Below are positions 1,710-55,186 of a stretch of DNA of 64,000 nt, one piece after another; position 1 is the stretch's first letter; every line of letters begins with the position of its first letter. The DNA lies in the NCBI GenBank assembly GCA_030917815.1, contig JAUPTZ010000013.1, positions 3,109 through 67,108 of the forward strand, written 5' to 3'. This DNA is from Candidatus Babelota bacterium. Lineage in GTDB: Bacteria; Babelota; Babeliae; Babelales; JAUPTZ01. A model generated the notes under the pieces. That model was not told the origin of the DNA. It did not search any database and saw nothing but the letters and a program-made list of their open reading frames with translations. A program made the translations under genes and the position numbers.

Positions 1710-1940
1710 CCTCCTACGCATAAATGCTTCGGCGGACTGACGTCGCTGCCACACTCCTCCCTCGCTACTGCATCATAGCTACGGCGAACTATCGCACTTC
1801 AATGAATAAAGCCCTCCTACGCCCACATGAGGCTTCGGCGGGCAACGCTTTCGCACTCCATCAGTCAGGCCCTTAAAAAGGATGGCCTGCCAGCTGGAGC
1901 CTCTTTACGGCGTACCTTGCGGCGCCGTAAAGGCGAAAGC
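1710..1940. repeat. Two units of the GC-rich modular hairpin repeat family (1710-1808 and 1811-1940); the second abuts the CCA end of tRNA-Thr(TGT)
   Basis: 1811-1940 aligns almost base for base with 2071-2176 and 2240-2261 (cctcctacgcccacatg.ggcttcggcgg...ctttcgcactccatcagtcaggcc...tggcctgccagctggagcctcttt.cggcgtacctt). Nested stems can be drawn by hand. Confidence 0.8.
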
Positions 1941-2016
1941 TGGAGCCGGCAACAGGACTTGAACCCGTGACCTACTGATTACAAATCAGTTGCTCTACCA
2001 ACTGAGCTATGCCGGC
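1941..2016 (-). tRNA. tRNA-Thr (anticodon TGT)
   Basis: Acceptor GCCGGCA/TGCCGGC, anticodon stem ACTGA/TCAGT with loop TTTGTAA, T-loop TTCAAGT, encoded CCA. Confidence 0.9.
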
Positions 2017-2070
2017 ATCTTTATTTTTCGTACTAAATCACACGACTTACGCCACCCTTCGGAAACATAG

Positions 2071-2261
2071 TCCTCCTACGCCCACATGGGGCTTCGGCGG
2101 ACGACGCTTTCGCACTCCATCAGTCAGGCCGTTAAAGAAAGTGGCCTGCCAGCTGGAGCCTCTTTGCGGCGTACCTTCGACTTCGCTCTTGCGAGCTGCG
2201 TCGTAACGCGCCTTAGCCCAAAAACGGGCGGCGCCGCAACCGCCGCCGCAAAGGCGAAAGA
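2071..2261. repeat. Hairpin-repeat unit abutting the CCA end of tRNA-Gly, with a second module nested in its hairpin loop
   Basis: Same consensus as 1811-1940, plus about 70 extra nt (2180-2245) carrying cgacttcg...cgtcgtaacgcgccttagccc, a module also seen at 9498-9557 and 13708-13766. Confidence 0.8.
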
Positions 2262-2338
2262 TGGAGCGGGAAACGGGACTCGAACCCGCAACCTACAGCT
2301 TGGAAGGCTGTCGCTCTAGCCAATTGAGCTATTCCCGC
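2262..2338 (-). tRNA. tRNA-Gly (anticodon TCC)
   Basis: Acceptor GCGGGAA/TTCCCGC, anticodon stem ACAGC/GCTGT with loop CTTCCAA, T-loop TTCGAGT, encoded CCA. Confidence 0.9.
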
Positions 2339-2378
2339 GCGTTTAGTACCTATATTTTGGTCTGCATTTAGTATTGTG

Positions 2379-2537
2379 CTTTGCGCTCGCCACCGCGGCC
2401 TTTGATCAGCCCTGAGAAGCTTGTGAGCGAGGCGCAGTCGGTCCGCCGTCGCCCTTACGGGCTATGGCGCGACATCCTCCTTCGCCTTATCCTAACTTGC
2501 CGGACGTAAGTCGCGACGAAGCCTTGGCGAAGTCGGA
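2379..2537. repeat. GC-rich repeat-family segment abutting the CCA end of tRNA-Tyr
   Basis: Contains the family words gtccgccgtcgcc, catcctccttcgcc and (reverse strand) tccgacttcgccaaggcttcgtcgcg, matching cccgacttcgcatagcttcgtcgcgg at 13708. Confidence 0.65.
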
Positions 2538-2622
2538 TGGTGGGGAGAACAGGATTCGAACCTGTGAAGGCTTAGCCAACGGATTTACAGTCCGTCCCCT
2601 TTGGCCGCTCGGGAATCTCCCC
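2538..2622 (-). tRNA. tRNA-Tyr (anticodon GTA), long variable arm
   Basis: Acceptor GGGGAGA/TCTCCCC, anticodon loop CTGTAAA, long extra arm, T-loop TTCGAAT, encoded CCA. Confidence 0.9.
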
Positions 2623-2720
2623 GTCAAACACTCTACTATACGCACTAATGAAAACTTCAAAGAAACAAGAAGGGTGATATGATACCGTTTTTACCACAGA
2701 ATGCAACTACTTTTTTTGCT

Positions 2721-3203
2721 TTATTCTTCAACTGCAGCGCCAACCAGGCCGCTGATGTCACCATGGTGCGCCCAATGCAACTCACGTAAACCCTCATTTT
2801 TAGCCAGATATTTAAATGTTAGAGCAAGAATTCGAGCTCGATAGGCCGGTCGCTCAATAAGCGAGGCAATACGATCAGGCCACTCAATAAGGACAATCCC
2901 TCGCGGGTCGTTAAGGTAGTCGGCAAACCCAAACGATTCAAATTCTTCAATGCCACTGATGCGATACAAATCAAAGTGATAAATCGTCACGCCGGCCAAT
3001 GCATACACACTCACATACGAATAGGTAGGTGACACAACCGGCTCAGCAACACCCAATTCAGCACACAATCGCTGCACAAAAGTGGTTTTCCCAGCCCCCA
3101 ACAGCCCGGTCAACGTCATAATCGTTCCTGGCTGCAGCTGGTTACTAAATAGTTTAACTACCGCATCAAGCTGCTGAACCGAGTACTGCATACTTTTTAG
3201 CAT
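2721..3203 (-). CDS. tsaE: tRNA t6A37 biosynthesis ATPase TsaE (YjeE family)
   Basis: 160-aa ORF with P-loop GLLGAGKTTFVQ, SPTYSYV and HFDLYRI motifs typical of TsaE. Confidence 0.85.
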   Translation of the reverse strand: MLKSMQYSVQQLDAVVKLFSNQLQPGTIMTLTGLLGAGKTTFVQRLCAELGVAEPVVSPTYSYVSVYALAGVTIYHFDLYRISGIEEFESFGFADYLNDPRGIVLIEWPDRIASLIERPAYRARILALTFKYLAKNEGLRELHWAHHGDISGLVGAAVEE

Positions 3204-3215
3204 ATCTCATTCCTC

Positions 3216-3842
3216 TCAACCTAGTTTTTTGCGCACGCTAATGCGGGCTTTCTCCTGCTTACTCAGGGAGCCCTTGTTGGTACGCAGCTTCGTCACACTG
3301 TCCTCTTTTTTGCCAACGCCACTAACACTCGCTTCAATCATCAATGAATCGACATCAATGCCCTCCGGCATGTCTTCGAGCTCTATCACATCATTTTCAA
3401 GTTTTGTTATAACAATCTCACCATACCGATGCGAGGTAGCGGCACTTTCTTCTTGCTGGGCACATACCGACTGCACCAACCCCCAAAACTCATGTACCCC
3501 CATAGCCGCACCGCGGTGCACCGCTACACGTTGCTGCAACTCACGATCATTGCTAATTAACAACCCTTTTTCTCGGAGATCTTGCGCATACTGAACCAAC
3601 ACATCATCGGCCTTGCGCCTAGCTCCTGCGTAGATTACTACTAACCCACCAATAATTTCTCGTGTTTTGTGAAGAAACAGCCCACCGTCAAACACTACCC
3701 GGATCTCCTGTATTTCATCACGCTTCGCCTTACGGTAAGCAGAAAGTTTTGAGAGAAACCAATTGACCTGTGCCTCATAGGCCTGACGATCACCCGGATA
3801 TAAAAAGCGCACGACGTTATAGGCATCTATCAATAAAATCAT
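3216..3842 (-). CDS. YacP-like NYN-domain protein (putative RNase)
   Basis: ILLIDAYNVV...VVFDGG...VIYAG...ADD pattern of the YacP/NYN family. The likely start is the Met at 3842; the ORF track extends to 3863. Confidence 0.7.
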   Translation of the reverse strand: MILLIDAYNVVRFLYPGDRQAYEAQVNWFLSKLSAYRKAKRDEIQEIRVVFDGGLFLHKTREIIGGLVVIYAGARRKADDVLVQYAQDLREKGLLISNDRELQQRVAVHRGAAMGVHEFWGLVQSVCAQQEESAATSHRYGEIVITKLENDVIELEDMPEGIDVDSLMIEASVSGVGKKEDSVTKLRTNKGSLSKQEKARISVRKKLG

Positions 3843-3935
3843 ATAAAATAATACCAATCCCAATTGAGTTCATGCTACAAGTTGCGTACACTGCAATCTA
3901 ACATCTCTTTGCAAAAATAATAAGGACCGTATCTC

Positions 3936-4808
3936 ATGGCTCATCTGTCACATATAAAAAATAGAATCCAAACTATTCAAAAAACGCAGAAGATCACCAA
4001 AGCCATGAGATTGATCGCCATGTCGTTTTACTCAAAGTTGGAACGGCAACGATCGATGCTCAACAACTATCGCGCAACCACAAAAACACTCACCAACATT
4101 CTCCATCAGGGGCAGGCAACAATCCCGGCAATTTACGGCGCTCATTCAAAAGCAAAGCCGCAACCATTGATCATTGTATGCTCAAGCGCCAAAGGACTCT
4201 GCGGTGGCCTCAACAACAACATTATTCGTTTTTTTGAACGCTCGCTTATTGCCACCAAAAGCGTAAAGCCGTCATTTATTACCATAGGCAGTAAGGCATG
4301 CGCCTATTTGCAAGACAGCAGTCACGGCACCATCGTGGAAAAAATAGCCGATTACCATCTCAATTCCATCGACAAGCTGGCAACCACTATCGTCAATCAT
4401 ATTCTTACTAAAAAAGAACCGTATACATCGGTCGTTATTTATTACACACATCTTAAGAATTTCTTTATTCAAACGCCTCGCAAAGAACAATTGCTGCCGC
4501 TCGTTACGACGAATGAAGAAACCGGCGAAGCAATAACCGTATCCCCGCTCAAAGAGAGTGAAAAATATCTATGGGAACAAGATCCGGACCGGCTCGGTCA
4601 AGCACTGATACGACAGCACTTATACAGCGAGATCATTTTTGCTTTGTTCAGCAATCTTATCTCTGAAAATGCGGCCCGCTTCATCGCAATGGACCAATCG
4701 ACTAATAATGCGCATAAATACTTAGAAACACTTAATTTGGCCTATAATAAGTCACGGCAAAATATTATCACACGAGAGATTGCCGAACTATCAAGCAGCT
4801 TTGACTAG
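3936..4808 (+). CDS. atpG: F1 ATP synthase gamma subunit, not flanked by other atp genes
   Basis: 290-aa ORF. N-terminal IKNRIQTIQKTQKITKAMRLIAMS and C-terminal ENAARFIAMDQSTNNA...LAYNKSRQNIITREIAEL match the two conserved gamma-subunit helices. Confidence 0.85.
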   Translation: MAHLSHIKNRIQTIQKTQKITKAMRLIAMSFYSKLERQRSMLNNYRATTKTLTNILHQGQATIPAIYGAHSKAKPQPLIIVCSSAKGLCGGLNNNIIRFFERSLIATKSVKPSFITIGSKACAYLQDSSHGTIVEKIADYHLNSIDKLATTIVNHILTKKEPYTSVVIYYTHLKNFFIQTPRKEQLLPLVTTNEETGEAITVSPLKESEKYLWEQDPDRLGQALIRQHLYSEIIFALFSNLISENAARFIAMDQSTNNAHKYLETLNLAYNKSRQNIITREIAELSSSFD

Positions 4809-4912: not shown

Positions 4913-5551
4913 ATGACCGATGTACGTGAAACGGTATACATACCGGCTAAAAAAAGCCCAGGACGCCTTGAAGTAATTTGCGGATCTATGTTTTCTGGTA
5001 AAACAGAGGAACTCATGCGACGATTACGCCGCGCCGAGTTTGCCAAGCAAACCGTTCTTACTATCAAGCACCTCATCGATTCTCGCGCACATCACCAATG
5101 CATTCTATCGCATGATGGACAAGAACGCTCGGCCCATCCTATCGACAATACACCACAAGGGATTAGAAAGATTTTAACCCTCGCCTCAACCGGTATTGAT
5201 GTAATCGGCATTGATGAATTACAATTTTTCCCTAAAGAGATTATCCCGGTTATCATCAGCCTTATTGAGCAAGGCAAACGAGTAGTCGTAGCCGGACTCG
5301 ATCTTGATTTTCGGGGCGAGCCGTTTGGCGTAATGCCAACCATAATGGCCCTGGCAGACAGCATTAGCAAACTCAATGCTATTTGCAGCACCTGCGGAAA
5401 AAGCTCTCACTTCTCCCAGCGCATCGTAAACGGTGAACCGGCCAAATATGACGACCCCCTCATGCTCGTAGGTGCAGCTGAAACCTACGAACCTCGCTGC
5501 CGTACCTGTTTTGTTATAGAAAAAAAACCTGAACAAAGGATGTTTTTATGA
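4913..5551 (+). CDS. tdk: Thymidine kinase (TK1 type), copy 1
   Basis: GSMFSGKTEEL P-loop, IDELQFF, and zinc-ligand pairs CSTCG and CRTC. Confidence 0.9.
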   Translation: MTDVRETVYIPAKKSPGRLEVICGSMFSGKTEELMRRLRRAEFAKQTVLTIKHLIDSRAHHQCILSHDGQERSAHPIDNTPQGIRKILTLASTGIDVIGIDELQFFPKEIIPVIISLIEQGKRVVVAGLDLDFRGEPFGVMPTIMALADSISKLNAICSTCGKSSHFSQRIVNGEPAKYDDPLMLVGAAETYEPRCRTCFVIEKKPEQRMFL

Positions 5552-6153
5552 AATCAAAAAAAGGCTCGCTTGAGGTCGTAGCCGGCTGCATGTTCTCCGG
5601 AAAAACCGAGGAGCTTATGCGCCTTGTCCGCCGTGCCGAGTATGCAAAACAGTCGGTTATCACCATCAAACATCGCATCGATAACCGAGTTCATACGGCC
5701 TGCATCAATTCTCATGCCGGGCGCGTACTCGTAGCCTCTGCTGCCGACGATGTTGCCAGTCTCCGCGCCGCTATCCCTCAGAACATTGAGGTTGTCGCCA
5801 TCGACGAAGTACAATTTTTCCCTGCCGAGATTTTCACCGTTATTGAAGAGCTGGTCGATCGTGGCGTCCGCGTCATTGCGGCCGGGCTTGATACCGATTT
5901 TCGTGGCCAGCCGTTTGGCGTAATGCCACAACTCATGACCTATGCCGATCACGTACATAAGCTTTCTGCTATCTGTATGCAGTGCGGCAAAGATGCCCGC
6001 TGGACACAGCGATTAGTCAATGGCAAACCGGCAGATTGGAACGATCCACTCATCATGGTGGGTGCCGAAGATGCGTATGAAGCCCGTTGCCGCACCTGCT
6101 TTTCTATCAACAAACCAGTAACCCTTCATGGCCAAACAAACCGAACGGCATAA
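5548..6153 (+). CDS. tdk: Thymidine kinase (TK1 type), copy 2
   Basis: GCMFSGKTEEL, IDEVQFF, CMQCG and CRTC. The start ATG overlaps the copy-1 stop (ATGA at 5548-5551). Confidence 0.9.
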   Translation: MKSKKGSLEVVAGCMFSGKTEELMRLVRRAEYAKQSVITIKHRIDNRVHTACINSHAGRVLVASAADDVASLRAAIPQNIEVVAIDEVQFFPAEIFTVIEELVDRGVRVIAAGLDTDFRGQPFGVMPQLMTYADHVHKLSAICMQCGKDARWTQRLVNGKPADWNDPLIMVGAEDAYEARCRTCFSINKPVTLHGQTNRTA

Positions 6154-9395: not shown

Positions 9396-9720
9396 GCATT
9401 TGCTTCGCTGGCTGCGCCTTCTCGCAAAGACTGCCGAATAGGGCAGCTATCAGCCACGCAAAGCTCGCTGATAGCAATAATACACATTATGAAGCGTCCC
9501 GACTTCGTTAAAACTTCGTCGCGGCACGCCTTAGCACCGAATGTGCGGTGGTGGCACTGCGAGGTTTTAACCGTGGCAGTGCCTGTGCCGGATGCCCGGC
9601 GGCAAAACAAGCGTCAGTCCGCTGCGACGCGGACGCATTCTGAGAAACGAGCAGCTCCTGCGAGTGCCGAAGAAAAAAAATTGCACAGCGGTTTATCGCC
9701 TTACGTCAGACCCCCCTAAC
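9396..9720. repeat. Composite of GC-rich repeat-family modules
   Basis: 9498-9557 is about 80 percent identical to 13708-13766. 9596-9671 parallels 49026-49102, including an identical 18-mer cgagcagctcctgcgagt. Also contains ctcgcaaagac. Confidence 0.75.
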
Positions 9721-9764: not shown

Positions 9765-9842
9765 CCAGGCCCTTCTGAGGGGCCTGTCCGCCGTAGCTCT
9801 GCCCGCTGTAGCCTTTGGCATAAGCGGAAGAGCGTTGGAGGA
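9765..9842. repeat. Repeat-family unit directly after the rpsI stop
   Basis: aggccc-ttctgag-gggcct hairpin, then gtccgccgtagc...gttggagga. This is the same word pair as 30131-30186. Confidence 0.6.
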
Positions 9843-10241
9843 TTAGCGCTTAACGAATTGGAATTTCTTACGCGCTGCTTTTTGTCCGTATTTCTTACGT
9901 TCTTTTACGCGAGAATCAACGGTAAGCAAGCTGTTGGCACGAAGAACCAAACGCAAATTTTCATCAACGGTCAACAAAGCACGCGCAATACCAAGCTTGA
10001 TAGCATCAGATTGACCGGTACGACCGCCGCCTTGAACGTTTGCCACGATGTCGTAACTCTTGTTATGGCCGGTCACATTTAACGGAGCCAACAAGCCTTG
10101 ACGGGTTGCATCGGTATCAAAATATTGTGCATAGTCACGGCCATTGACCACGATGGATCCACTGCCGCTTTTAAGCCACACGCGAGCTGTCGCACTTTTT
10201 CGACGACCAATCCCGTGATGCATTGTGCTACTTTGTTTCAT
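9843..10241 (-). CDS. rpsI: 30S ribosomal protein S9
   Basis: GIGRRKSATARV and the C-terminal DSRVKERKKYGQKAARKKFQFVKR are S9 hallmarks. Confidence 0.95.
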   Translation of the reverse strand: MKQSSTMHHGIGRRKSATARVWLKSGSGSIVVNGRDYAQYFDTDATRQGLLAPLNVTGHNKSYDIVANVQGGGRTGQSDAIKLGIARALLTVDENLRLVLRANSLLTVDSRVKERKKYGQKAARKKFQFVKR

Positions 10242-13570: not shown

Positions 13571-13998
13571 GCGCTAAAACCATTGAATGACTCATAGAAT
13601 GCACGATCTCGCTCCTCCTTGTCCCGCTACACGCTCGCAAGAGCGTCATCGCGAGCGCATGCGTGGCGATCCAGCAGATTATTTGTTACCTATCTCTCCT
13701 GGATTGCCCCGACTTCGCATAGCTTCGTCGCGGCTCGCCTTAGCACGGAACGTACGGAGGCGGCACGGCCTGCAATGCAGACCTCGCAAAGACGGCTGGT
13801 GGCGTCTAGTAAGTATCTACATTGAATTCCGTTGTCTATAGTTCTCGAACAGTAAGCCACTGAGAAAATCTGCCGCAGTGAGCCAGCTCCACGCAGGAAA
13901 GCGAGAGAGGGGTGTTTGAGCGACCGCGTGGACTGCTGGCCACGATAGGCAGCATAGCGCAAGATTTGGCAGTGTCTCATGCGCTAAAACCATTGAAT
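13571..13998. repeat. 392-bp composite repeat element bracketed by an 18-bp perfect direct repeat
   Basis: gcgctaaaaccattgaat occurs at 13571-13588 and 13981-13998. The interior carries the family modules ctggatcgccacg...gatgacgc, ggattgcccc gacttcg..., and ctcgcaaagacgg...acattgaatt.cgttgtctata. Confidence 0.75.
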
Positions 13999-29610: not shown

Positions 29611-29911
29611 ACGAAAAGCAGAGCTTCAAGAAATCCTTTCAGGGGCGAATCAGATAGTTTCAGACACGCAAGTTAAAGATTCGGGCGACGAAGCACTTAC
29701 CGCTTCAATGGATAACCTCCAAAGCTCGCTCACGCAGTCTGAAGTAGAAGAACTTAATCAAATTAATGCAGCTCTTTCGCGCATCGAACACACCGAATAC
29801 GGTTTATGTATTGATTGTGGCGAAGCTATTGCAGAAAAGCGTCTCGAACATTCACCGTTCTCGGCTCGCTGCATCGTGTGCCAAGAAGAACTGGAACAAT
29901 CACATCGATAA
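29561..29911 (+). CDS. DksA/TraR-family C4 zinc-finger protein
   Basis: Coiled-coil N-terminal part, then CIDCGEAIAEKRLEHSPFSARCIVC (CxxC-17-CxxC). GTG start at 29561 with AAGGAGG 6 nt upstream. Overlaps the tadA 3-prime end by 50 nt. Confidence 0.8.
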   Translation: MSNNAAFTSKMKENLLKRKAELQEILSGANQIVSDTQVKDSGDEALTASMDNLQSSLTQSEVEELNQINAALSRIEHTEYGLCIDCGEAIAEKRLEHSPFSARCIVCQEELEQSHR

Positions 29912-29987
29912 ACAATCCAAGAACTAGCGCTTGATGCTTGCAGCAAAGAAGAGTTTCCTTTAGAATACCGGCCTTCTTCCTTATAAT

Positions 29988-30062
<75 letters not shown>

Positions 30063-30392
30063 GCCTTCGCCGAGGCTACGGCTGGCTGCGCCGCTACCAA
30101 TATAGGCGCAAGACAGACGGAGTAGCGAAGGCTGTCCGCCGTAGTGCACTTAAGCTCCATCGGAGTGAAAGTGTACGTAGGAGGACTGGCTGCCATCCTC
30201 ATAAAATCTTATCTAAAAACGCTATTGCTTACTCTCCTACCAACACCCTATTCATGCACAGTTCACCCTCAGGCTACGGCTGGCTGCGCCGCTACCAATA
30301 TAGGCGCAAGACAGACGGAGTAGCGAAGGCTGTCCGCCGTAGTGCGCCAAAGCTCCACCGAAGCGGAGGTGTACGTAGGAGGACTGGTTGCC
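30063..30392. repeat. Two tandem copies (period 198 bp) of a hairpin-repeat unit starting right after the tRNA-Thr CCA
   Basis: 30073-30147 is identical to 30271-30345 (75 nt), and gtgtacgtaggaggactgg recurs in both. The first copy is closed by agccttcgc/gcgaaggct. Confidence 0.85.
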
Positions 30393-30522
30393 GCCGCAAT
30401 CAAATCCCACAAAAAAACCTCAATTTACTCTTGCCATCACTCTATCAATTCATGCATATTTCTCGTTCATTCAACCGACAGGCATACATACAATACGGCT
30501 CTCTAAGGGAGCTCGTACTCAT

Positions 30523-30765
30523 ATGTTTTACGTCTATTTAATCAGATCAATTAATTTCCCTGAACTCACGTATATCGGCTTCACTCTCAATCTTAATACA
30601 CGCGTCACAGCACATAACAATGGCGAAGCCATTCATACTTCAAAGTACAAACCGTGGAAACTTGAAATGTATTGTGCATTCATTGATGAAGTAAAAGCAA
30701 AAGCATTCGAGAGATACTTGAAATCTGGCTCAGGAAGAGCGTTTGCAAAAAAACACTTATGGTAA
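30523..30765 (+). CDS. Small stand-alone GIY-YIG nuclease-domain protein
   Basis: 80 aa: MFYVYLIRS...TYIGFTLNLNTRVTAHN...KAFERYLKSGSGRAF (GIY...YIG, R, E pattern). The ATG at 30523 is preceded by AAGGGA. The upstream part of the track ORF covers repeat DNA. Confidence 0.75.
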   Translation: MFYVYLIRSINFPELTYIGFTLNLNTRVTAHNNGEAIHTSKYKPWKLEMYCAFIDEVKAKAFERYLKSGSGRAFAKKHLW

Positions 30766-30789
30766 AAGCCTCGCGGATGCCCCTACCCA

Positions 30790-31005
30790 CTAATACAGAG
30801 CCGCTATTCCACTCAGCATTCCCAAAGCCATCAATGCCCACATCAATCGCCACCACAATAGTGATGCTCCCCTAGCTTTGCCACTAATGTGACAAACTAC
30901 AAAGACTCCAACAAAACATACGAAGCTAAAAACAAGAAAAGCCGTAGAGTACGGGCCAGCGTAGCAACCGGCAGGACGAAAAATCGGTATAAAATACATT
31001 GCCAA
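30790..31005 (-). CDS. Small two-TM membrane protein
   Basis: 71 aa with two hydrophobic helices. Starts 2 nt after the preceding gene's stop. Confidence 0.45.
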   Translation of the reverse strand: MAMYFIPIFRPAGCYAGPYSTAFLVFSFVCFVGVFVVCHISGKARGASLLWWRLMWALMALGMLSGIAALY

Positions 31006-33470: not shown

Positions 33471-34829
33471 ATGATCGCGCTTATTACCGCATTTATCCTC
33501 TATACGCTCATCCTTATTGGTATTGGCGCTTATGGCTACAAAAAAACCTTGGCCTCTGGTGATTTTGGCACCGGCAACCGCACCATGAACTACTGGATCA
33601 CCGCACTATCAGCCCTTGCTGCCGACATGGGCGTTTATCTCTTTTTTGGCTTGCCTGGCGCTGTCTATCTCTCAAGCACCGAATGTTGGACCGTTTTCGG
33701 CCTCGTCGGCGGGATGTGGGCAACCTGGCATTTCATTGCACCAAAACTCCGTACTCGAAGCGAAGAAAGCAACAGCAGCACCCTTACTCATTTCCTGTGC
33801 ACAACGGCCGGGGATACTCACGGGTACCTCACGATCGTTAGCTCAACATTACTTACCTTCTTCTTTATCTTTTACATTGCGGCCGCTTTTAGCGGTATTG
33901 GCAACATTATTGCCTACACCTTTGGGTCACCCTACTGGATTGGCGTCGTTGCAAGCGCCTGCATGGTTACCTTTTATATATCGGTTGGCGGCTATCTTAC
34001 CGTTGCGCTAGCCGACGCTTTTCAAGGTGTTTTTCTCCTCTCAATGGTAGTCATCGTCCCCCTTATTACCGCATGGAACTTAGCAAAAACCGGTGTTTTC
34101 TCAGGGCCGACTGACTACACTGCATTCACGCCGACAACGATCGGTATTGGCGCCGGTATAGCGGCTGCGGTCAATTGGGGTCTTGGCTACCTTGGTATGC
34201 CACATATTCTTACTAAATTTATGGGAATCGACTCGGTTAAGAACATGAAAAAAGCCCAGTACCTTGGGCTCTCTTTTCAAGCCATTGCGCTGAGTTCCTC
34301 GGCCATTATCGGCCTCCTCGCTCGCTCCTACTTCCACACCCCACCTGCATCGGCCGAAACTCTTTTTTTACATATGGTTATGGAGCAATGCGCGCCCCTG
34401 CTAGCCGGTTTCATTCTCTGCGCAGTTATGGCGGCCGCAATCTCATCGCTTGATGCACAACTTATTGTCTGCGCATCGGTTATTGCCCGAGATCTCTTTA
34501 AGGCAAAAAATGCTCATCAAGAAAAAATCATCACCCGCCTCAGCACGATGGCCATCGCAGCCATTGGGGTCTGCATTGCGCTCACAAACACAAGTACCAT
34601 GTATGCCATGGTCCGCTATGCCTGGTCAGGACTTGGCAGTACCTTTGGCCCACTCGTTGTCATGAGCCTTTATGCACCACAACAACTCACCACCCGAAGC
34701 GCACTGGCCGGCATATTAGTTGGTGGCCTCACTGCCGCCCTTTGGCCTTATTACGGACCATTTTTAGCAACGGCACCGCTTATTCCTGGCTTTTGTAGCG
34801 GCCTCTTTGTTATGTACGCCTTACCCTAG
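33471..34829 (+). CDS. Sodium:solute symporter family (SSF) transporter
   Basis: 452 aa with about 12-13 TM segments. The N-terminal pattern (YLILIGIGAYGYKKT..DF..GNR.M) is typical of PutP/PanF-like SSF proteins. The substrate cannot be called. Confidence 0.75.
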   Translation: MIALITAFILYTLILIGIGAYGYKKTLASGDFGTGNRTMNYWITALSALAADMGVYLFFGLPGAVYLSSTECWTVFGLVGGMWATWHFIAPKLRTRSEESNSSTLTHFLCTTAGDTHGYLTIVSSTLLTFFFIFYIAAAFSGIGNIIAYTFGSPYWIGVVASACMVTFYISVGGYLTVALADAFQGVFLLSMVVIVPLITAWNLAKTGVFSGPTDYTAFTPTTIGIGAGIAAAVNWGLGYLGMPHILTKFMGIDSVKNMKKAQYLGLSFQAIALSSSAIIGLLARSYFHTPPASAETLFLHMVMEQCAPLLAGFILCAVMAAAISSLDAQLIVCASVIARDLFKAKNAHQEKIITRLSTMAIAAIGVCIALTNTSTMYAMVRYAWSGLGSTFGPLVVMSLYAPQQLTTRSALAGILVGGLTAALWPYYGPFLATAPLIPGFCSGLFVMYALP

Positions 34830-36871
34830 TCGCTGTCTACTTTGTTCTTTCGGTACTGAGCGTATTTGTAGAGACCGGCCACTGCAAGCGCACCAGCAGT
34901 AGCAAGACCTGCATAGGCAAAGCCTTGGCCAACTTTTTGTGCGGTGCTCATGCCACCAGCTGCTTTATATGGCGTAAGTCCCCAAAAGGCATGCGCCTTA
35001 TCGGTAAAGCTTTTCTTAACATTGGCAGGAAGCACCCCAACTTCCGCATCATTGGCAATGGCAATCCCGGTTATCGGTGCGCGGCTAATAAATCCCGCAG
35101 TCGGGCTATCACGATCAAGAGATACCGGCACCACAATACCGTCCGGGGATGAACACCAATATTGAAACGGAGAATACGAGAATTGAGACTCTCGCGCATC
35201 CTTACCCCACCAATCATAATACGGTGGTGGATTAACTACAAAGCCACTTGGTATCAATAAAACCCCATCGTACGAAACCGCATGGTCAGCAGTTAAGAAT
35301 TTAACCTGAATCATCGCCCCTACATCACTAGGATTAGCCCACGTTGTTTTAAAATTCTTTATGCTTGTATCAATACCATCTTCAAGTACCGCACTCATTT
35401 CTTTTCCAAGCGCATAAAATGCCGACTCGGCTAAAACCATGGCATTCAACGGAAAAATTTGTACCTCCTCCCTTGCAAGTACCGTTACCTTATTAAGTGG
35501 ACGCATATAAAAAGCACATTGACCGCCAAAGAACTTCGCACTCGCCGCTATAACAAACCCACTTGCGTCGTACGAAAGCTGCAACTGCTGGTAAAGATCT
35601 TGCCGATCTTTATCAATCTTCTTCTGTTTATTTTGATCAGAATCGGAAACACCCACAAGTGCGAGATACGAAGATCGAAGGCTTTCTTGCTTATCTGCGG
35701 TAACCGGATACGCAAGCCCATCAACATATATCTGCCCTGATGGATTTAGTGCTGGATCAAAAAAAGCACCCCCTTGTATAGAAATTGAGGTCGCATCGGC
35801 CGAAAGTGCAAGACCAGCTGTCGTATTTTTCCACGCCGAAAACGCTGGCACAGTAGCGGTCACCGGACTGGTCAATGACAGCGCGATGAAGGTGGTATCG
35901 GTCGGCGTTGCACCACTAACTGCAAGATAATAATCGGCCAATTTCATACCAAAAGAGGTTGGCACGAATATCCGATGTGGCTGTGGTATTATGCCTGAAG
36001 AACTAGCGCTTATGCCATCATGCGACAGTTTATTAAGCCAATATTGCTTTACCGTAATCGGTGCCATGAGAGGATTCATTACTTGATAGATCATGCTTTG
36101 CGGGAGATTATAGGTAGTTGTTCCTATAGTTACCGCTACGGTCGCAGCGGTCGCTGTCGCAACGCTTACGGCAGCCAAAGTATTAGAAATCGTATACGAA
36201 CCAACCACCGGCTGAGGACTGACGTACCCATTTGCTCGAGCACCAATAATAGGGGCATTTTCCGGATTCGAGATATCAAATGCGAGACGCTTACACGGAT
36301 CCATAAGAATATCACAATCGAACGACGAGATCGGATAAGGCTTTGGCACATTCCCTGCCCCGATTGCCACCGCATCATATGCAATAGAGGTCTCATTACC
36401 GCCGGTTGCAAAAGCCTGCAATGCAACAGCCCCCGACGGATATTTTACGCAGACCAAATAATTATCACCATGAATCCACATTCGCGTACGACCATCGGTG
36501 GCAAGCCCAACCCCACTTACATCTACCCAGCGACTCCCATCAAATACCACCGCCAAATAGACCGTTGTCATAACTTGCTTGCCGCTAATCAGTTGTGGTG
36601 TACCATCAGCGTTGTACCAGGCAACCTCTGCCGCATAGTAATACGGCGCAACAAAAATAGGGCTTCCCCCGGGCGGAGAGAGCACTGCTTTACGAAGCGT
36701 GAATAGTGAAAGTTCACCAACCTGATAGATCGGCGCACTCTTACCAGGAGCGAGCTGTGGGGTAATGGCAATCTTCCTCTCTACAAAATCATCAGCAGAA
36801 AGCCACCCACCACCGGAAACAATACAGAGAACTAGAAAACTTTTAAGAACTTTATGTCGCACAGAATACAT
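34826..36871 (-). CDS. Large signal-peptide protein with C-terminal TM anchor, paralog 1
   Basis: 681 aa. N-terminal hydrophobic signal, then C-terminal GFAYAGLATAGALAVAGLYKYAQYRKNK. Roughly three quarters identical to the next gene. Confidence 0.75.
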   Translation of the reverse strand: MYSVRHKVLKSFLVLCIVSGGGWLSADDFVERKIAITPQLAPGKSAPIYQVGELSLFTLRKAVLSPPGGSPIFVAPYYYAAEVAWYNADGTPQLISGKQVMTTVYLAVVFDGSRWVDVSGVGLATDGRTRMWIHGDNYLVCVKYPSGAVALQAFATGGNETSIAYDAVAIGAGNVPKPYPISSFDCDILMDPCKRLAFDISNPENAPIIGARANGYVSPQPVVGSYTISNTLAAVSVATATAATVAVTIGTTTYNLPQSMIYQVMNPLMAPITVKQYWLNKLSHDGISASSSGIIPQPHRIFVPTSFGMKLADYYLAVSGATPTDTTFIALSLTSPVTATVPAFSAWKNTTAGLALSADATSISIQGGAFFDPALNPSGQIYVDGLAYPVTADKQESLRSSYLALVGVSDSDQNKQKKIDKDRQDLYQQLQLSYDASGFVIAASAKFFGGQCAFYMRPLNKVTVLAREEVQIFPLNAMVLAESAFYALGKEMSAVLEDGIDTSIKNFKTTWANPSDVGAMIQVKFLTADHAVSYDGVLLIPSGFVVNPPPYYDWWGKDARESQFSYSPFQYWCSSPDGIVVPVSLDRDSPTAGFISRAPITGIAIANDAEVGVLPANVKKSFTDKAHAFWGLTPYKAAGGMSTAQKVGQGFAYAGLATAGALAVAGLYKYAQYRKNKVDSD

Positions 36872-36928: not shown

Positions 36929-39022
36929 CTAATATCCGTCTGCTTTTCGTTGTCGATACTGGGCGTATTTGTAGAAAGCAGTCAACGCAAGCGCACCGCC
37001 GGCAGCAATACCTGCATAGGCAAAGCCTTGGCCAACTTTTTGTGCGGTGCTCATACCCGCTGCTGCTTTAGTTTCTTCTTTATACGGAGTCAATCCCCAA
37101 AAGTCATGCGCCTTATCGGTAAAATTTTTCTTGAGATCGGCAGAAAGCGCAGTGACTTCCGCATCATCAGCAATAGCAAGACCGGTTATCGTCGACCCGC
37201 TAAAATCAGCAGACAACTGCGACACAACGCCACCCGATGGCGAATACCAGCATTGAAGACATAACGGCGCCATATCATAACGATAATATGGTACCGGATT
37301 AGCTACAAAGCCACCTCTCGTCACTAAAATTCCATCGTACGACACCGCAGCATCGGCGGTCAAAAATTTAACTTGGATCATCGCACCTACTTTACTTGCG
37401 TCGGCCCAGACTTTTTTAAGATTTTTTGCGCTCGTATCGATACCGTCCTCAAGTACCGCATTCATTCCTTTGCCAAGCGCATAAAATGCCGACTCGGCTA
37501 GAGCTACCGCATTCAACGGATTTTGTAGTACCTGATCCCTTGCAAGTACCGTTACCTTATTAAGTGGGCGCATATAAAAACCACATTGACCGGTAAAAAA
37601 TTGTGCACTTGCTGCTATAACAAACCCACTAGCATCGTATGTAAGCTGCAACTGCTGGTAAAGGTCTTGACGATCTTTATCAATCTTTTTCTGTTTATCC
37701 GGATCAGAATCTGAAACACCCACTAGTGCGAGATACGAAGATCGAAGGCTTTCTTGCTTGTCTACGGTAACGGGATAGGCAAACCCATCAACATACATCT
37801 GCCCTGATGGCCTTAATGTCGGATCAAAAAAAGCGCCTCCCTGTATCGAGATTGAGGTCGCATCGGCTGAAAGCGCAAGCCCAGATGCAGTGTTTTTCCA
37901 CGCTGAAAAAGCTGGCACGGTAGCGGTCATCGGACTGGTCAGTGATAACGCGATAAAAGTAGTATCGGCAGGCGTTGCACCACTAACCGCAAGATAATAA
38001 TCGGCTAACTTCATATCAAAAGCAGTGGGGACACACGCCTTAAATGGCTGTGGAGTTACGACGGGGGAACTAGCGGGCAAGGTACCTGCCGAAGAAACAG
38101 CACTTATGCCACCATGCGATAACGTATTAAGCCAATATTGCTCTACTGTAAGCGGCGTTGCTGCCACTGGAGTTTTCGACCCGGCAGCCGGTGTAGCGGC
38201 TATCGACGTTGTGAGAGGATTCATTACTTGATAGATCATGCTTTGCGGAAGATTATAAGTAGTTGTTCCTATAGTTACCGCTACAGTAGCAGCGGTCGCT
38301 GTCGCAACGCTTACTGCAGCCAAAGTATTGGAAATAGTATACGAACCAATCACCGGCTGAGGACCGGCGTACCCATTTGCTTGAGTTTCAATAATAGTGC
38401 GACCGCACGATCCATCAGTATTAAAAAACGTAGCCGGCAGTGTAAGGACATCAAGATCTAACGAAGAAATCGTATAAGGCTTCGGCACATTTGCTGTACC
38501 AATTGCTACGGCATCATATGCAATAGAGGTCTCATCACCACCGGTTGCAAAAGCCCGCAATGAAACAACCCCTGAGGCACTCTTTGAGCAAACCACATAG
38601 TTATCACTATGGGTCCACGTCCGCGTAACACCATCGGGTGCAAAGCCAACCCCACTCACATCTTTCCAGGTGCGTAGAGACGTATCATACATCAACGCCA
38701 AATAGACCGTTGTCGTAACCTGCTTACCACTAATAAGTTTTGGTGTACCACCAGTGTTGTACCAGGTCACCTCTGCCGCATAGTAATACGGCGCAACAAA
38801 TATAGGACTCCCCCCGGCCGGAGAGAGCACCGCTTTACGAAGCGTAAATAGTGAAAGTTCTCCAATACTCAGCTGCGTCATCTTACCGGGAGCGGCCGGT
38901 AGCTGCGGTACCGACACCGAAATTTTCCTCTCCACAAAGTCATCGGCAGAAAGCCAACCACCACCAAAAACAATACCGAAAAATAGAAAACTTTTGAGGA
39001 GCTTATGTCGCACACAATACAT
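36929..39022 (-). CDS. Large signal-peptide protein with C-terminal TM anchor, paralog 2
   Basis: 697 aa with the same architecture. The leader sequence (tttgaaaggtc.atgc.ATGta) is shared with paralog 1. Confidence 0.75.
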   Translation of the reverse strand: MYCVRHKLLKSFLFFGIVFGGGWLSADDFVERKISVSVPQLPAAPGKMTQLSIGELSLFTLRKAVLSPAGGSPIFVAPYYYAAEVTWYNTGGTPKLISGKQVTTTVYLALMYDTSLRTWKDVSGVGFAPDGVTRTWTHSDNYVVCSKSASGVVSLRAFATGGDETSIAYDAVAIGTANVPKPYTISSLDLDVLTLPATFFNTDGSCGRTIIETQANGYAGPQPVIGSYTISNTLAAVSVATATAATVAVTIGTTTYNLPQSMIYQVMNPLTTSIAATPAAGSKTPVAATPLTVEQYWLNTLSHGGISAVSSAGTLPASSPVVTPQPFKACVPTAFDMKLADYYLAVSGATPADTTFIALSLTSPMTATVPAFSAWKNTASGLALSADATSISIQGGAFFDPTLRPSGQMYVDGFAYPVTVDKQESLRSSYLALVGVSDSDPDKQKKIDKDRQDLYQQLQLTYDASGFVIAASAQFFTGQCGFYMRPLNKVTVLARDQVLQNPLNAVALAESAFYALGKGMNAVLEDGIDTSAKNLKKVWADASKVGAMIQVKFLTADAAVSYDGILVTRGGFVANPVPYYRYDMAPLCLQCWYSPSGGVVSQLSADFSGSTITGLAIADDAEVTALSADLKKNFTDKAHDFWGLTPYKEETKAAAGMSTAQKVGQGFAYAGIAAGGALALTAFYKYAQYRQRKADGY

Positions 39023-48606: not shown

Positions 48607-48750
48607 ATTTACGCCAACGCGCCTGTGCCAAAGGCTCGGCACGTTGAGGCTTCAGCAGGCTACGCCGTTAAAGGCGCTCGCTGCTTGCCCGAAGATGTCT
48701 TTGAAAAACATTGAATTGTTGTTACACATGCGGTATAACGCATGTGTTGC
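48607..48750. repeat. Hairpin-rich spacer, probably related to the repeat family
   Basis: Hairpins gtgcc-aaaggctc-ggcac, agcag..cgcc-gttaaa-ggcg..ctgct and acacatgcg-gtataa-cgcatgtgt. Contains the family word acattgaattg (also at 13820 and, on the reverse strand, at 28848). Confidence 0.5.
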
Positions 48751-48842
48751 GGAGAGGTGGCTGAGTGGTCGAAAGCGCGCGCCTGCTAAGTGTGTATACT
48801 CGTAATTGGGTATCGAGGGTTCGAATCCCTCCCTCTCCACCA
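48751..48842 (+). tRNA. tRNA-Ser (anticodon GCT)
   Basis: Acceptor GGAGAGG/CCTCTCC, anticodon loop CTGCTAA, long variable arm, T-loop TTCGAAT, encoded CCA. Confidence 0.9.
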
Positions 48843-49102
48843 TCCTGCGCCGCTAAAGCGCAAGACAGATGGTGTCCGCCAAAGCTCCGATAGAGGAGCG
48901 CAGGAGGACCTGGCAGGTATCAGCTTCGCCATATGCTCGCTGATACCAAAAACAACCTCATCCATATATAGTACATTAAGCGACTGCGAGAGCATGCTCG
49001 TGGCAGACGCTGTGGCGGCACAGTCCGCCGGCAAAATTAACGTCAGCCGACACGTCGACGTCGGCACATCCCGCGGAGCGAGCAGCTCCTGCGAGTAACG
49101 AG
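48843..49102. repeat. Repeat-family composite filling the gap between the two tRNA-Ser genes
   Basis: The hairpin tcctgcgc...gcgcagga starts at the first base after CCA. gcgcaagacagatgg matches 30105-30119. 49026-49102 parallels 9596-9671. Confidence 0.8.
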
Positions 49103-49190
49103 GGAGAGATGGCAGAGCGGTTGAATGCGACGGTCTTGAAAACCGTTATGTTGAAAGGCATCGGGGGTTCGAATCCCTCTCTCTCCACCA
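49103..49190 (+). tRNA. tRNA-Ser (anticodon TGA)
   Basis: Acceptor GGAGAGA/TCTCTCC, anticodon loop CTTGAAA, long variable arm, T-loop TTCGAAT, encoded CCA. Confidence 0.9.
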
Positions 49191-49232
49191 TCCTGCGCCA
49201 CTAAAGCTCCGATAAAAAAGCGCAGGAGGACT
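49191..49232 (+). repeat. Short repeat-family hairpin directly after the tRNA-Ser(TGA) CCA
   Basis: tcctgcgc-cactaaagctccgataaaaaa-gcgcagga-ggac. The arms are the same as the hairpin at 48843-48905. Confidence 0.75.
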
Positions 49233-53881: not shown

Positions 53882-55186
53882 TTAAGCGGTTGCTTTTGGT
53901 CTATAGAAAAAAACATAGGCCGCTCGTATCCAGTCATTAACTGCCGAAGAGTTAGACCCACCCATCAGAGGCCCCTCAATCATCGGCACGAGCACCCCGG
54001 TACGCGTATGCACCGTATCGAGCGCCTCTTGTATTATAGCCTGGCGCTTTTTGCGCTCTTCATCAAGCTCAACCCCAAAACCCCCTGCTATAGCTGAAAA
54101 AACAATGCGATGGTGACGTGAGTTATGCATAAGACCGGCTAAATTCTCGATTTGCCTATGTATCTTAAGAAGCAGCTGCTGGCCCGCATCACCGGTAGGA
54201 TCTGTATCAAGATGCTGCACGATACTCTGCTGACACGCAGAGAGCTCTTGTAGTGCATCGACAAAAGCGGCATCAGATGCAATAGCGGTATAATGCTCAA
54301 TCCATTCAGCGAGTTGATTATCCCCAGAAGGCAGCGAATTCTCCGGCAACGCTGCGTAGGCAACCTGTGCTTTTTGCATCCACGCAGACATTTCAGGAGT
54401 TGGCGTTACGGGTACTATCGAAAATTTACTACCCACCAGAGCAGAAACAGGCTCATGAACCGCCGCCGCCAACTCCAAAAACGTCTTATTCATCTCTTGC
54501 GCCTTACGGGCCAATCCGGTAAATATGGCCGTAATCTCACTACGCTCAGCTTCTGTCTTCTTGTTCATATAGGTAGATAAATACTGAGTATTCGCATTCG
54601 CCTTCACTACCCAGTCCATAGCAAACTGACCGGTCGGATCTTGCGCAAGATTATCTTGCAACTCAGATAATGCCGCATAATGATCCCTCATATAGGCCGC
54701 ATACTCCTTATCTTTATAGAGAACGGTAAAGTACTCTATAAGCTGTTTCAATTCCTCATCATTAAGAATTTGGGCTACTTGTGTGTCTTTAAATGCATCT
54801 ATCATGGAATAGACCTCAGTTATATCGATTATCGTTTGCCAATCAACCGACTTCTGCTCCTCGCATTTAACAATGGCAACATCCAATGCCTCACTTGCGC
54901 TCAACATCGCCTGTGCTTTTTTGCGCAGCAAGGTTGCTTGAACACGTAAATGAGCCACGGTAGAGATCTCTTTTCCTAAAATTTCTTTGATCTGAACAAG
55001 TTCAAATCCTAAAAACTTTAACGCCAAGATCTGCTGCAACCGTTGTAAGTCGGCCTCAGAGTACAAGCGATAGCCATTATCCAATCGTATACTCGGCTTG
55101 AGTAAATTAATCTCATCATAATGATGCAGCGTGCGCACCGAAATGCGCATTAATTTACTCAGCTTTCGTACTAACCATTGTGCCAT
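53882..55186 (-). CDS. TipA/Mta-like MerR-family regulator with duplicated C-terminal effector domain
   Basis: The HTH SVRTLHHYDEINLLKPSIRLDNGYRLYSEADLQRLQQILALKFLGF is typical of the TipAL/Mta subgroup. The C-terminal half contains two related segments (LQDNLAQDPTGQFAMDW and VQHLDTDPTGDAGQQLL). Confidence 0.8.
   Translation of the reverse strand: MAQWLVRKLSKLMRISVRTLHHYDEINLLKPSIRLDNGYRLYSEADLQRLQQILALKFLGFELVQIKEILGKEISTVAHLRVQATLLRKKAQAMLSASEALDVAIVKCEEQKSVDWQTIIDITEVYSMIDAFKDTQVAQILNDEELKQLIEYFTVLYKDKEYAAYMRDHYAALSELQDNLAQDPTGQFAMDWVVKANANTQYLSTYMNKKTEAERSEITAIFTGLARKAQEMNKTFLELAAAVHEPVSALVGSKFSIVPVTPTPEMSAWMQKAQVAYAALPENSLPSGDNQLAEWIEHYTAIASDAAFVDALQELSACQQSIVQHLDTDPTGDAGQQLLLKIHRQIENLAGLMHNSRHHRIVFSAIAGGFGVELDEERKKRQAIIQEALDTVHTRTGVLVPMIEGPLMGGSNSSAVNDWIRAAYVFFYRPKATA

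Follow-up and report, generated by a model that had tools for sequence, protein, structure and literature searches.

The 64,000-nucleotide (nt) stretch of DNA analysed here (the window) is part of contig JAUPTZ010000013.1 from a metagenome-assembled genome (MAG) of Candidatus Dependentiae, and carries, directly at the encoded CCA ends of several of its tRNA genes, GC-rich hairpin elements that belong to a module family spanning many bacterial phyla. The complete form of this family consists of a tRNA or transfer-messenger RNA (tmRNA) gene with its CCA, followed by an inverted hairpin unit, a direct unit, a hairpin designated RH and a gene for an 80-residue GIY-YIG nuclease of the Slx1/UPF0213 type. 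The window harbors one complete copy, in which tRNA-Thr(CGT) is succeeded by two elements and then the open reading frame (ORF), and at least eight ORF-less copies. We propose that the trailers following tRNA-Tyr, tRNA-Gly, tRNA-Thr(TGT) and both tRNA-Ser genes are ORF-less derivatives of this widespread, unnamed cassette and that the cassette is selfish, a reading that, taken as a whole, might about equally well prove right or wrong.

Structured elements at the CCA ends of a tRNA array

On the minus strand of the window the genes run in the order tsaE, tRNA-Tyr, tRNA-Gly, tRNA-Thr(TGT), tRNA-Thr(GGT), tRNA-Trp, secE, nusG and rplK, and in all three of tRNA-Tyr(GTA) (2538-2622; 56.5 bits with the Rfam tRNA model), tRNA-Gly(TCC) (2262-2338) and tRNA-Thr(TGT) (1941-2016), as called by ARAGORN and Rfam, a GC-rich structure abuts the encoded CCA. 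An earlier reading of these letters (the original prediction) had placed the junctions right after the CCA, with gctttcgc following tRNA-Thr and tctttcgc following tRNA-Gly, which the sequence confirms, and had drawn on paper a closing stem (1933-1940/1847-1854), a 10-bp hairpin (1932-1923/1912-1903) and a second hairpin, all of which, together with a tail hairpin, are present in the minimum-free-energy fold. The Thr(TGT) trailer folds at -67.1 kcal/mol against -49.9 +/- 3.6 for its shuffles (z -4.8; equalled by 0 of 200), the Gly trailer at -96.0 kcal/mol against -79.1 (z -3.98), and the Tyr trailer lies at z -4.15 relative to its shuffles; for the tail motif CCGCCGAAGC..GCGTAGGAGG, 3 occurrences were counted where 0 were expected.

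The individual elements were delineated with two models, R1 for the whole element (a covariance model) and R2 for the unit, the expect values (E) of both of which are rough. The element after tRNA-Thr(TGT) (minus strand, 1808-1943, with RH at 1810-1843; R1 36.7 bits; R2 37.3 bits, E 2.2e-9) is accompanied by a second, partial tandem element (minus strand, 1705-1788, with RH at 1707-1737; R1 25.7 bits; R2 28.4 bits, E 2.1e-6) that is also recovered as a motif match. The element after tRNA-Gly (minus strand, 2064-2261; R1 37.6 bits; R2 34.7 bits, E 1.6e-8) is made up of the closing stem P1 (2254-2261/2106-2113), the 10-bp hairpin (2253-2244/2171-2162), the second hairpin and RH (2069-2102). The tRNA-Tyr trailer is likewise a full family member (minus strand, 2438-2540; R1 27.5 bits, E 0.0046), in which R2 identifies an inverted unit (2513-2536 on the plus strand) and the hairpin RH (2440-2473 on the minus strand); its P1 is formed by ATCCgacTTCGCC / GGCGAAggaGGAT and its RH reads GTCGCGCC-ATAG-CCCgtaaGGG-CGACG-GCGGAC.

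The Thr(TGT) element is 89% identical to the Gly copy across 114 nt, and the 14 substitutions between these two copies are distributed as 8 in 46 unpaired and 6 in 90 paired positions. Four of the latter six constitute two compensatory double changes, namely the A:U pair of the Thr copy (1928/1907) that is G:C in the Gly copy (2249/2166), as had been correctly pointed out before, and a C:G pair in the tail hairpin of the Thr copy (1842/1812) that is U:A in the Gly copy; another change at paired positions is U.G to C:G. The additional ~70 nt in the loop of the Gly 10-bp hairpin (~2172-2243) had been taken for a nested module, and they align with the reverse complement of 13700-13800 with a score of 55 against a shuffle maximum of 35, with a further weak R1 match at 2175-2258. 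This identifies them as an inverted module of the same superfamily (minus strand, 2172-2243) and bears out the view that modules insert into modules. The modules CGACTTCG..CTTCGTCGCG (2512-2535, 9500-9523 and 13710-13732) are not a second family but the inverted left-hand unit of the same superfamily.

Since the sequence derives from a MAG, and short-read contigs assembled independently are interrupted at these very repeats, it might be asked whether the modules are chance GC-rich sequence or an artefact of assembly. We consider this well-nigh inconceivable, given that a separate Logan contig is an exact copy of the window over 2204-4074 (31 consecutive 60-nt pieces plus the last 60 nt), that the folds reach a z of -4.8, that the tail motif recurs against an expectation of none and that the same architecture is found in hundreds of unrelated assemblies.

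The complete copy and the other copies in the window

The complete copy lies on the plus strand, where tRNA-Thr(CGT) (29988-30062; ARAGORN), with a promoter-like site ahead of it (29959-29987; promoter scan), is followed by the best family match of the window (30060-30189; R1 59.7 bits, E 1.6e-8; R2 29.1 bits on the minus strand; fold z -4.0). The inverted unit of this element (30056-30086) takes in the CCA of the tRNA, its P1 is formed by GCCTTCGC / GCGAAGGC, and RH comes next. The tandem second copy (plus strand, 30258-30387, with RH at 30342-30375; R1 37.5 bits, matched also by R2) is without the 5' arm of P1 and is 86% identical to the first across 148 nt. The GIY-YIG gene itself (plus strand, 30523-30765) is the sole copy in the window, in which tblastn recovered no second nuclease gene and no remnant of one, be it at the array (1710-2537) or at the other ORF-less copies.

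Two further elements follow tRNA-Ser genes on the plus strand: a short one after tRNA-Ser(GCT) (48751-48842), located at 48837-48912 with RH at 48874-48910 (R1 33.8 bits; R2 27.4 bits, E 4.3e-6), and a truncated one after tRNA-Ser(TGA) (49103-49190), located at 49191-49230 and ending in GCGCAGGAGGAC, which shares its start with the Ser(GCT) copy and is recognized by repeat family D20 (92%) and its fold, with no match to R1 or R2. Three more copies on the plus strand are away from tRNAs, namely one at 9498-9585 with an inverted unit at 9498-9523 (R1 18.4 bits; R2 20.3 bits, E 0.001), one at 9765-9846 (R1 31.4 bits, E 0.001) that abuts the 3' end of the opposite-strand rpsI (ORF 9843-10241, Pfam Ribosomal_S9), and a weak one at 13706-13781 with an inverted unit at 13706-13733 (R1 10.2 bits; R2 13.2 bits; motif match). 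The element starts directly at the CCA in the six tRNA-linked copies and not in those at 9498, 9765 and 13706. R1 matches with 25.7-59.7 bits at eight sites of the window, seven of which are after tRNAs; R2 matches the elements with E from 2e-9 to 1e-3, finding direct units at their 3' ends and inverted units at 30056-30086, 2513-2536, 9498-9523 and 13706-13733, with no further match at E < 0.01 in the 64 kb.

Overall, an element follows six of the nine tRNAs in the window (Tyr, Gly, Thr(TGT), Thr(CGT), Ser(GCT) and Ser(TGA)), whereas among ~31 other intergenic gaps only 1 to 3 contain one. The Fisher p for this enrichment is 1.4e-4 with the gap-script count of 1, and would be weaker, at an estimated rather than computed ~1e-3, with 3 other gaps. 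As a separate observation, the trailer of tRNA-Arg(ACG) (48607-48700) is GC-rich and structured (-38.4 kcal/mol, z -1.8) and is matched by neither R1 nor R2; it may be a degenerate or a different module.

Anatomy and covariation of the element

The building block of the family is the unit, a ~30-nt GC-rich hairpin of the form S-GWAGC-loop-GCGWAG-S' with a 7-bp stem, a purine-rich 3x3 internal loop (GAA/GAA, GUA/GUA, AUA/GAC etc.) and a 2-3-bp distal stem. The GWAG/CGWAG of the internal loop is better conserved than the protein encoded downstream. The stem of the first, inverted unit uses the CCA plus three bases (NNN), and the direct unit following it uses the identical stem sequence, with the two together forming either one long helix from the CCA (P1 + P2) or two separate hairpins. 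The consensus of P1 is NNN-CTTCGC / GCGAAG-NNN', where NNN takes at least 10 values family-wide.

Compensatory changes across the family are in excess of shuffles: in P1, P2 and RH 93.2% of cells are paired (23-47% in slid controls), double changes affect 22 of 25 pairs, and double-change cells number 277, compared with 80 after shuffling, all in an alignment that was fitted to the modelled structure. In the alternative helix, CCA+NNN / NNN'UGG, pairing reaches 89.8%, and there are 52 double-change cells where shuffles have 20. Two covarying alternatives of this kind could constitute an RNA switch, and could equally be the plain inverted duplication of one palindromic unit. G.U pairs outnumber A.C pairs by 59 to 25 on the tRNA-sense strand, which leans towards selection at the RNA level, again in an alignment fitted to the model.

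These patterns bear on the alternative that the units are DNA-level repeats comparable to the repetitive extragenic palindromes (REP) and bacterial interspersed mosaic elements (BIME), wherein palindromes would extrude as hairpins or cruciforms and be cut and copied by the Slx1-type nuclease, with the RNA folds being a by-product. In favor of this, units are found in both orientations, in inverted pairs, nested and in tandem, including tandem arrays free of tRNAs in Bacteroidota (L034 and L044); several elements attain equal R1 scores on both strands; the covariation of all four copies of the 6-mer (in P1, P2 and the alternative helix) is what inverted duplication of one palindrome would produce; and the nuclease has the fold of junction-cutting enzymes. 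Yet the excess of G.U over A.C on the tRNA-sense strand, the constant polarity of the whole element with respect to the tRNA and the ORF, the proximity of RH to the start codon, the lack of units 3' of the gene and the position of GWAG inside the hairpin, rather than 5' of it as in REPs, all argue against this alternative, which we accordingly deem unlikely.

Spread of the family and its linkage to a nuclease gene

A scan of 185,579 species genomes with the exact RH pattern, which is biased to one RH sequence, recovered at least 113 loci from Sphingomonadales, Dependentiae/Babeliales, Patescibacteria, Bdellovibrionota, Verrucomicrobiota, Bacteroidota, Gammaproteobacteria and others. Some matches fall in coding sequence and look like chance; among the matches listed, 33 of 115 sit 15-122 nt after a same-strand tRNA and display the whole architecture, with the conserved boxes CCA-GCYTTCGC-(small hairpin)-YTCGGCTGGC-N-GCCAG-variable-GCGAAGGCT-GTCCGCC-GWAGC-loop-GCGYAGGAGGAC. 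At 14 or more of these 33 loci the next ORF starts with M.YVY(L/I)(I/L).S and codes for a GIY-YIG protein of ~80 residues that is 45-65% identical to the one from the window.

The same linkage emerges from the side of the protein. In a sample consisting of the best 80 of at least 580 metagenome loci, chosen without the RNA pattern, 68 loci had enough upstream sequence, and in 53 of these a tRNA or tmRNA 3' end is located at most 350 nt upstream on the same strand, comprising 39 tRNAs with 19 anticodons, 7 tmRNAs and 7 instances of a cut T-arm plus CCA. R1, which was built from the RNA-pattern set, has a match immediately ahead of the ORF at 60 of these 80 protein-only loci. Many genomes have the gene once, at one tRNA, and no unit was found on its 3' side.

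The original prediction did not recognize the modules as a named repeat family, and indeed Rfam 15 has no match at its gathering score other than tRNA, rRNA and RNase P in the window and 11 related loci, with relaxed Rfam scans yielding noise only. The literature searched, from which most subscription journals were missing, contains no description of the element.

Several other occurrences are of interest in their own right. An ORF-less element lies in the spacer of an rRNA operon, right after tRNA-Ala(TGC) and before the 23S rRNA (L010, 5999-6085; also L048, L069 and L081). In Sphingorhabdus and Parasphingorhabdus an RH-type unit stands in antisense 23 nt ahead of the gene for RNase P RNA (L090, 928-1340; also L076, L093 and L108). 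This RNase P RNA has a P3 hairpin that resembles a unit too (CCCGCCGGAGCTTTAGCGTAGGAGGG), which could reflect the insertion of a unit into P3 or mimicry. The MAGs of Bacteroidales L034 (~1950-2200) and L044 (6250-6500) carry tandem arrays of units with periods of ~31 and 42 nt and no tRNA nearby, the latter of which reads as a spurious repetitive ORF.

Insertion, decay and relocation

Elements are present or absent at orthologous sites of relatives, and across the family they have relocated between different tRNAs. Three related Dependentiae, with TsaE 58-64% identical, keep the order tsaE, tRNA-Tyr, tRNA-Gly, tRNA-Thr(TGT), tRNA-Thr(GGT), tRNA-Trp and secE. In L209 the Tyr-Gly and Gly-Thr spacers are 56 and 20 nt long, AT-rich and free of units; in L212 they are 32 and 19 nt, AT-rich and with no R2 unit, although a partial left-end hairpin follows tRNA-Thr(TGT); in L211 they are 172 and 80 nt, and the GC-rich trailers, among them an ortholog of the Thr(TGT) element in partial decay, give no R2 match; and in the window, with its full elements, they reach 199 and 245 nt. 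Because the same array in relatives has spacers of 19-56 nt devoid of units, the elements are insertions, placed between the CCA and the AT-rich, short leader that precedes the following tRNA. The Thr(TGT) ortholog of L211 keeps the first hairpin, with a further compensatory change that gives a third state, U:A, at a neighboring pair of that hairpin, and its distal half is decayed. In L212 (3867-3905) what follows tRNA-Thr(TGT) is the left-end hairpin CCAGCCTTAACTCCTTTGGGGTTACGGCTGGCGGGCCAG, with the 3' arm of P1 and RH absent, and this is a minimal or decayed element.

With regard to relocation, proteins that are 80-86% identical are encoded after different tRNAs (Tyr/Val, Met/Val and Ala/Leu), and those of a tmRNA/Ala pair are 76% identical; similarly, the gene of the window follows tRNA-Thr(CGT) and its closest homolog on a long contig (68% identity) follows tRNA-Glu(TTC). 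The inverted unit on the left and the direct unit on the right of the element resemble terminal inverted repeats, which in miniature inverted-repeat transposable elements (MITEs) go together with a target-site duplication.

A minimal Slx1-type GIY-YIG nuclease

The 80-residue product of the gene (Pfam PF01541, E 1.7e-14; NCBI MDQ5890870.1, 'putative endonuclease') retrieves 1zg2 (1.5e-8) and SLX1 (2e-7) in profile searches against the PDB. Its AlphaFold2 model is a single compact domain with a predicted local distance difference test score (pLDDT) of 95, the best Foldseek hits of which are 7wme, 7cq2 and 6sei, at a template modelling (TM) score of 0.7 (At-HIGLE and Slx1), with UvrC at E ~1. 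Sequence and predicted fold hence place the protein closest to Slx1/UPF0213, and not to UvrC or I-TevI. The residues Y5, Y17, G19, R27, H31 and E63 are invariant, and no DNA-binding domain is joined to the catalytic domain. The family comprises 2,321 clusters at 90% identity (E <= 1e-5) and 1,024 representatives at 50% identity (E <= 1e-10), and is annotated generically as 'putative endonuclease', with no NCBIfam name and no PHROG match. Many of its database entries (P0138-P0287) are 98-166 residues long with the domain at the C-terminus, and their N-terminal extensions probably arise from start codons mis-called inside the GC-rich leader.

A defence system was considered and set aside, with PADLOC returning no match beyond a marginal REase_II (E 0.0078), as was an origin from phages, since the gene occurs in 1 locus among 2.9 million viral contigs and has no counterpart in PHROG.

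The context of the gene also raises the alternative of an RNA-processing system, in which the GIY-YIG protein would be an endoribonuclease that cuts the units in tRNA trailers, freeing the tRNA 3' end, and that regulates itself via the units in its own leader, much as RNase E and RNase III autoregulate through their leaders. Such a role would agree with the t(m)RNA transcript context at 53 of 68 loci, the fixed polarity of the units relative to the tRNA, the excess of G.U over A.C and the conservation of the internal-loop GWAG/CGWAG beyond that of the protein. Further, prokaryotic Slx1-like GIY-YIG domains are fused to a TrmH-like tRNA methyltransferase and a class-I methyltransferase, fusions that the authors reporting them take as a hint of RNA metabolism (PMC1564403). 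On the other hand, the closest solved relatives, Slx1 and At-HIGLE, are DNA nucleases selective for structure (PMC9071465), relatives of the window mature the same tRNAs with unit-free spacers of 19-56 nt, the orthologous element of L211 is half decayed, and in many genomes the gene occurs once, at a single tRNA. In light of these points we regard a processing function as rather improbable.

Transcription context

The original prediction interpreted the array as autonomous promoter-tRNA-hairpin units, a reading in which the hairpin would act as a terminator or 3' end-forming signal. The -10-like hexamers on which it drew do exist (2635-2640 and 2349-2354), 10-12 nt before tRNA-Tyr and tRNA-Gly, but they are without a -35 partner and went unrecognized in the promoter scan, which is silent before tRNA-Gly and tRNA-Thr(TGT), with no sigma-70-like promoter there. 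A T-run follows RH in a few members elsewhere (for example L075, L129 and L141); no T-tract follows the RHs of the window, no terminator is called at any of them, and within 1300-2800 terminator calls are confined to the nested insert and a tRNA, on which grounds we rejected a terminator function. Moreover, the module must be read through because family-wide it stands between the tRNA and the downstream ORF, and the 19-20 nt that separate tRNA-Gly from tRNA-Thr in the orthologous arrays leave no room for a promoter. Autonomous units are hence the least supported account of the modules, and we hold them to be very unlikely; rather, an array with 19-56 nt between tRNA-Tyr, tRNA-Gly and tRNA-Thr is the ancestral, polycistronic layout.

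At the complete copy a promoter-like site precedes tRNA-Thr(CGT), the promoter match ahead of ORF 30523-30765 does not rise above chance level, and no terminator is called in 29850-30900. Across the family the gap between the end of RH and the start codon is 24 nt at the median and at most 20 nt in 28 of 59 loci, and the 3' arm of RH often carries AGGAGG.

A model for the cassette and its appraisal

We propose that the cassette, having no promoter of its own, would be transcribed by read-through from the tRNA promoter, and that 3' processing of the tRNA would then free an mRNA with its 5' end enclosed in P1. Hairpins at the 5' terminus are established stabilizers of mRNA. RH probably restrains the translation of the nuclease, because it lies a median of 24 nt from the start codon and frequently bears AGGAGG. 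The cassette and its ORF-less derivatives would spread among t(m)RNA 3' ends and subsequently decay. This spread is possibly aided by structure-specific cutting of the hairpin- or cruciform-forming units, a plausible driver because the nearest solved relatives of the protein are junction-cutting DNA nucleases: At-HIGLE is a Holliday-junction resolvase, and it and Slx1 are both junction-cutting and structure-selective (PMC9071465).

Several points weigh against this selfish-cassette model. The junctions show no target-site duplication relative to the empty sites of relatives, in a comparison that was not systematic, and we know of no mechanism that would direct an 80-residue nuclease lacking a DNA-binding domain to CCA ends. 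Both orientations of the unit are found, and three sites have no tRNA, which fits behavior at the DNA level equally well. The ORF-less copies retain pairing by compensatory change and may therefore be functional rather than decaying. Fitting the alignment (A3) to the modelled structure has inflated the pairing counts. Co-transcription, processing and translational control are all deduced from sequence. As for the last of these, the distance from RH to the start codon is variable and exceeds 100 nt in 7 of 59 loci, the 3' arm of RH is not Shine-Dalgarno-like in many variants, and the ORF of the window begins 140 nt beyond RH with a GGGAG of its own.

More tentatively, the bare 80-residue Slx1-type nuclease and the hairpin units might constitute a self-propagating system of an undescribed kind. 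In one possible version, resembling the REPtron, the nuclease would cut the hairpin or cruciform DNA of the units at the CCA junction and thereby copy the cassette between t(m)RNA genes. In another, for which HEARO/omega-RNA (see below) is a precedent, the conserved leader RNA would serve as a cofactor of the nuclease, with the NNN'-UGG box pairing with CCA ends to give specificity for tRNA ends. A third, addiction-type version would have modules on essential tRNAs making the cell dependent on the nuclease for the release of those tRNAs. A search for the actual REPtron layout, with a second hairpin unit after the ORF, found none.

Comparison with known systems

REP/BIME elements and their associated tyrosine transposases (RAYT) combine short GC-rich imperfect palindromes, in many intergenic copies and often in inverted pairs, with a single-copy nuclease-type gene. 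The present family resembles them in its multi-copy GC-rich palindromes, inverted pairs and associated nuclease-type gene, and differs from them in that the partner is an 80-residue GIY-YIG protein rather than an HUH Y1 transposase, that GWAG lies in the 3x3 internal loop on both arms whereas the GT[AG]G of REPs is immediately 5' of the palindrome, and that the CCA end of a t(m)RNA gene is the anchor point of the element, with units only 5' of the nuclease gene. The HNH endonuclease-associated RNA and ORF motif (HEARO), i.e. the omega-RNA of IscB, is a ~100-nt structured RNA upstream of a nuclease ORF that is mobile, present in many phyla and was at first an orphan motif. What the two have in common is a conserved structured RNA that immediately precedes a small nuclease ORF, in a mobile setting and across many phyla. 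IscB, however, is an HNH/RuvC protein of ~400-500 residues with a guide RNA, in contrast to the bare catalytic domain of 80 residues and a leader in which no guide-like variable segment was identified and which the Rfam models do not match.

SegB of phage T4 is a free-standing GIY-YIG homing endonuclease encoded in a phage tRNA gene cluster (PMC2330249), and is comparable as a GIY-YIG gene among tRNA genes that is inherited as a selfish unit. Unlike the single-domain protein of the Slx1 branch described here, the Seg and I-Tev enzymes possess DNA-binding domains and belong to the UvrC-like branch; the present family is, in addition, nearly absent from viral contigs and has a conserved structured leader. 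For cleavage of the kind that homing endonucleases direct at alleles without the insertion, the empty orthologous sites of relatives would be candidate substrates. Genomic islands with tyrosine integrases likewise target tRNA and tmRNA genes at their 3' ends, but the element at hand measures 0.1-0.4 kb, leaves no space for an integrase-sized ORF ahead of the following gene (these ORFs were not scanned with Pfam), and joins exactly after the CCA with no direct repeat of the tRNA 3' segment, the repeat families of the window showing similarity of this sort only between one tRNA and another. Rickettsia palindromic elements (RPE), Coxiella QMITEs and Neisseria Correia elements are similar as short structured repeats that proliferate and nest in a host-associated genome; here, no signature of terminal inverted repeats plus target duplication was seen, the preference for tRNA CCA ends is strong, sequence is conserved across phyla and a specific gene is linked. 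Leader hairpins that act as 5' stabilizers or mask the ribosome-binding site, including those of RNase E and RNase III, embody the principle we propose for P1 and RH, and differ in being confined to single genes, neither multi-copy nor mobile, and unattached to tRNAs. What is new, within the class of nuclease genes accompanied by palindromic repeats, is the CCA-end anchoring and the GIY-YIG partner.

Known RNA motifs were also considered, namely a hammerhead core (suggested by CUGAUGA/GAAA-like letters in the second hairpin), the kink-turn, sarcin-ricin, bacterial Y RNA and the UGGN-NCCA pairing of T-boxes; on hand inspection their arrangements do not fit, and no family model supports them.

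Other features of the window

Upstream of secE-nusG-rplK, tRNA-Thr(GGT) and tRNA-Trp (1353-1537) are 33 nt apart and lead directly into these genes with no tuf between, tuf being commonly found at this position in bacteria. A lone ATP-synthase gamma-like gene (3936-4808) adjoins tsaE and a gene for a YacP-like NYN-domain protein (3216-3863), an arrangement kept in relatives, and two overlapping tandem thymidine kinase genes (4913-5551 and 5548-6153) are conserved in the Dependentiae loci L209, L211 and L212. Elsewhere, two tandem paralogous ORFs of ~690 residues on the minus strand (34826-36871 and 36929-39022) have 80-92% DNA identity and no Pfam match, and adjacent genes for MerR-type helix-turn-helix proteins (53882-55186 and 55242-56084) have in common a 211-nt repeat with 81% identity.

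Conclusions

The link to the GIY-YIG gene, which the original prediction missed, is the key to the nature of the modules. It provides a protein family hitherto labelled 'putative endonuclease' with a conserved structured leader and a fixed position behind t(m)RNA genes in many phyla, and with these a concrete starting point for working out what the prokaryotic Slx1-like (UPF0213) nucleases do. It also furnishes a putative further case of a gene borrowing tRNA promoters, and accounts for the GC-rich tRNA trailers, enlarged array spacers and contig breaks in MAGs of Dependentiae and other bacteria. For annotation it carries a warning, in that gene calls of this family with N-terminal extensions probably reach into the leader. 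If it is true that the nuclease mobilizes the units, REP-RAYT would be joined by another, independent type of system that pairs repeats with a nuclease, the second of its sort and the first to be specific for tRNA ends.

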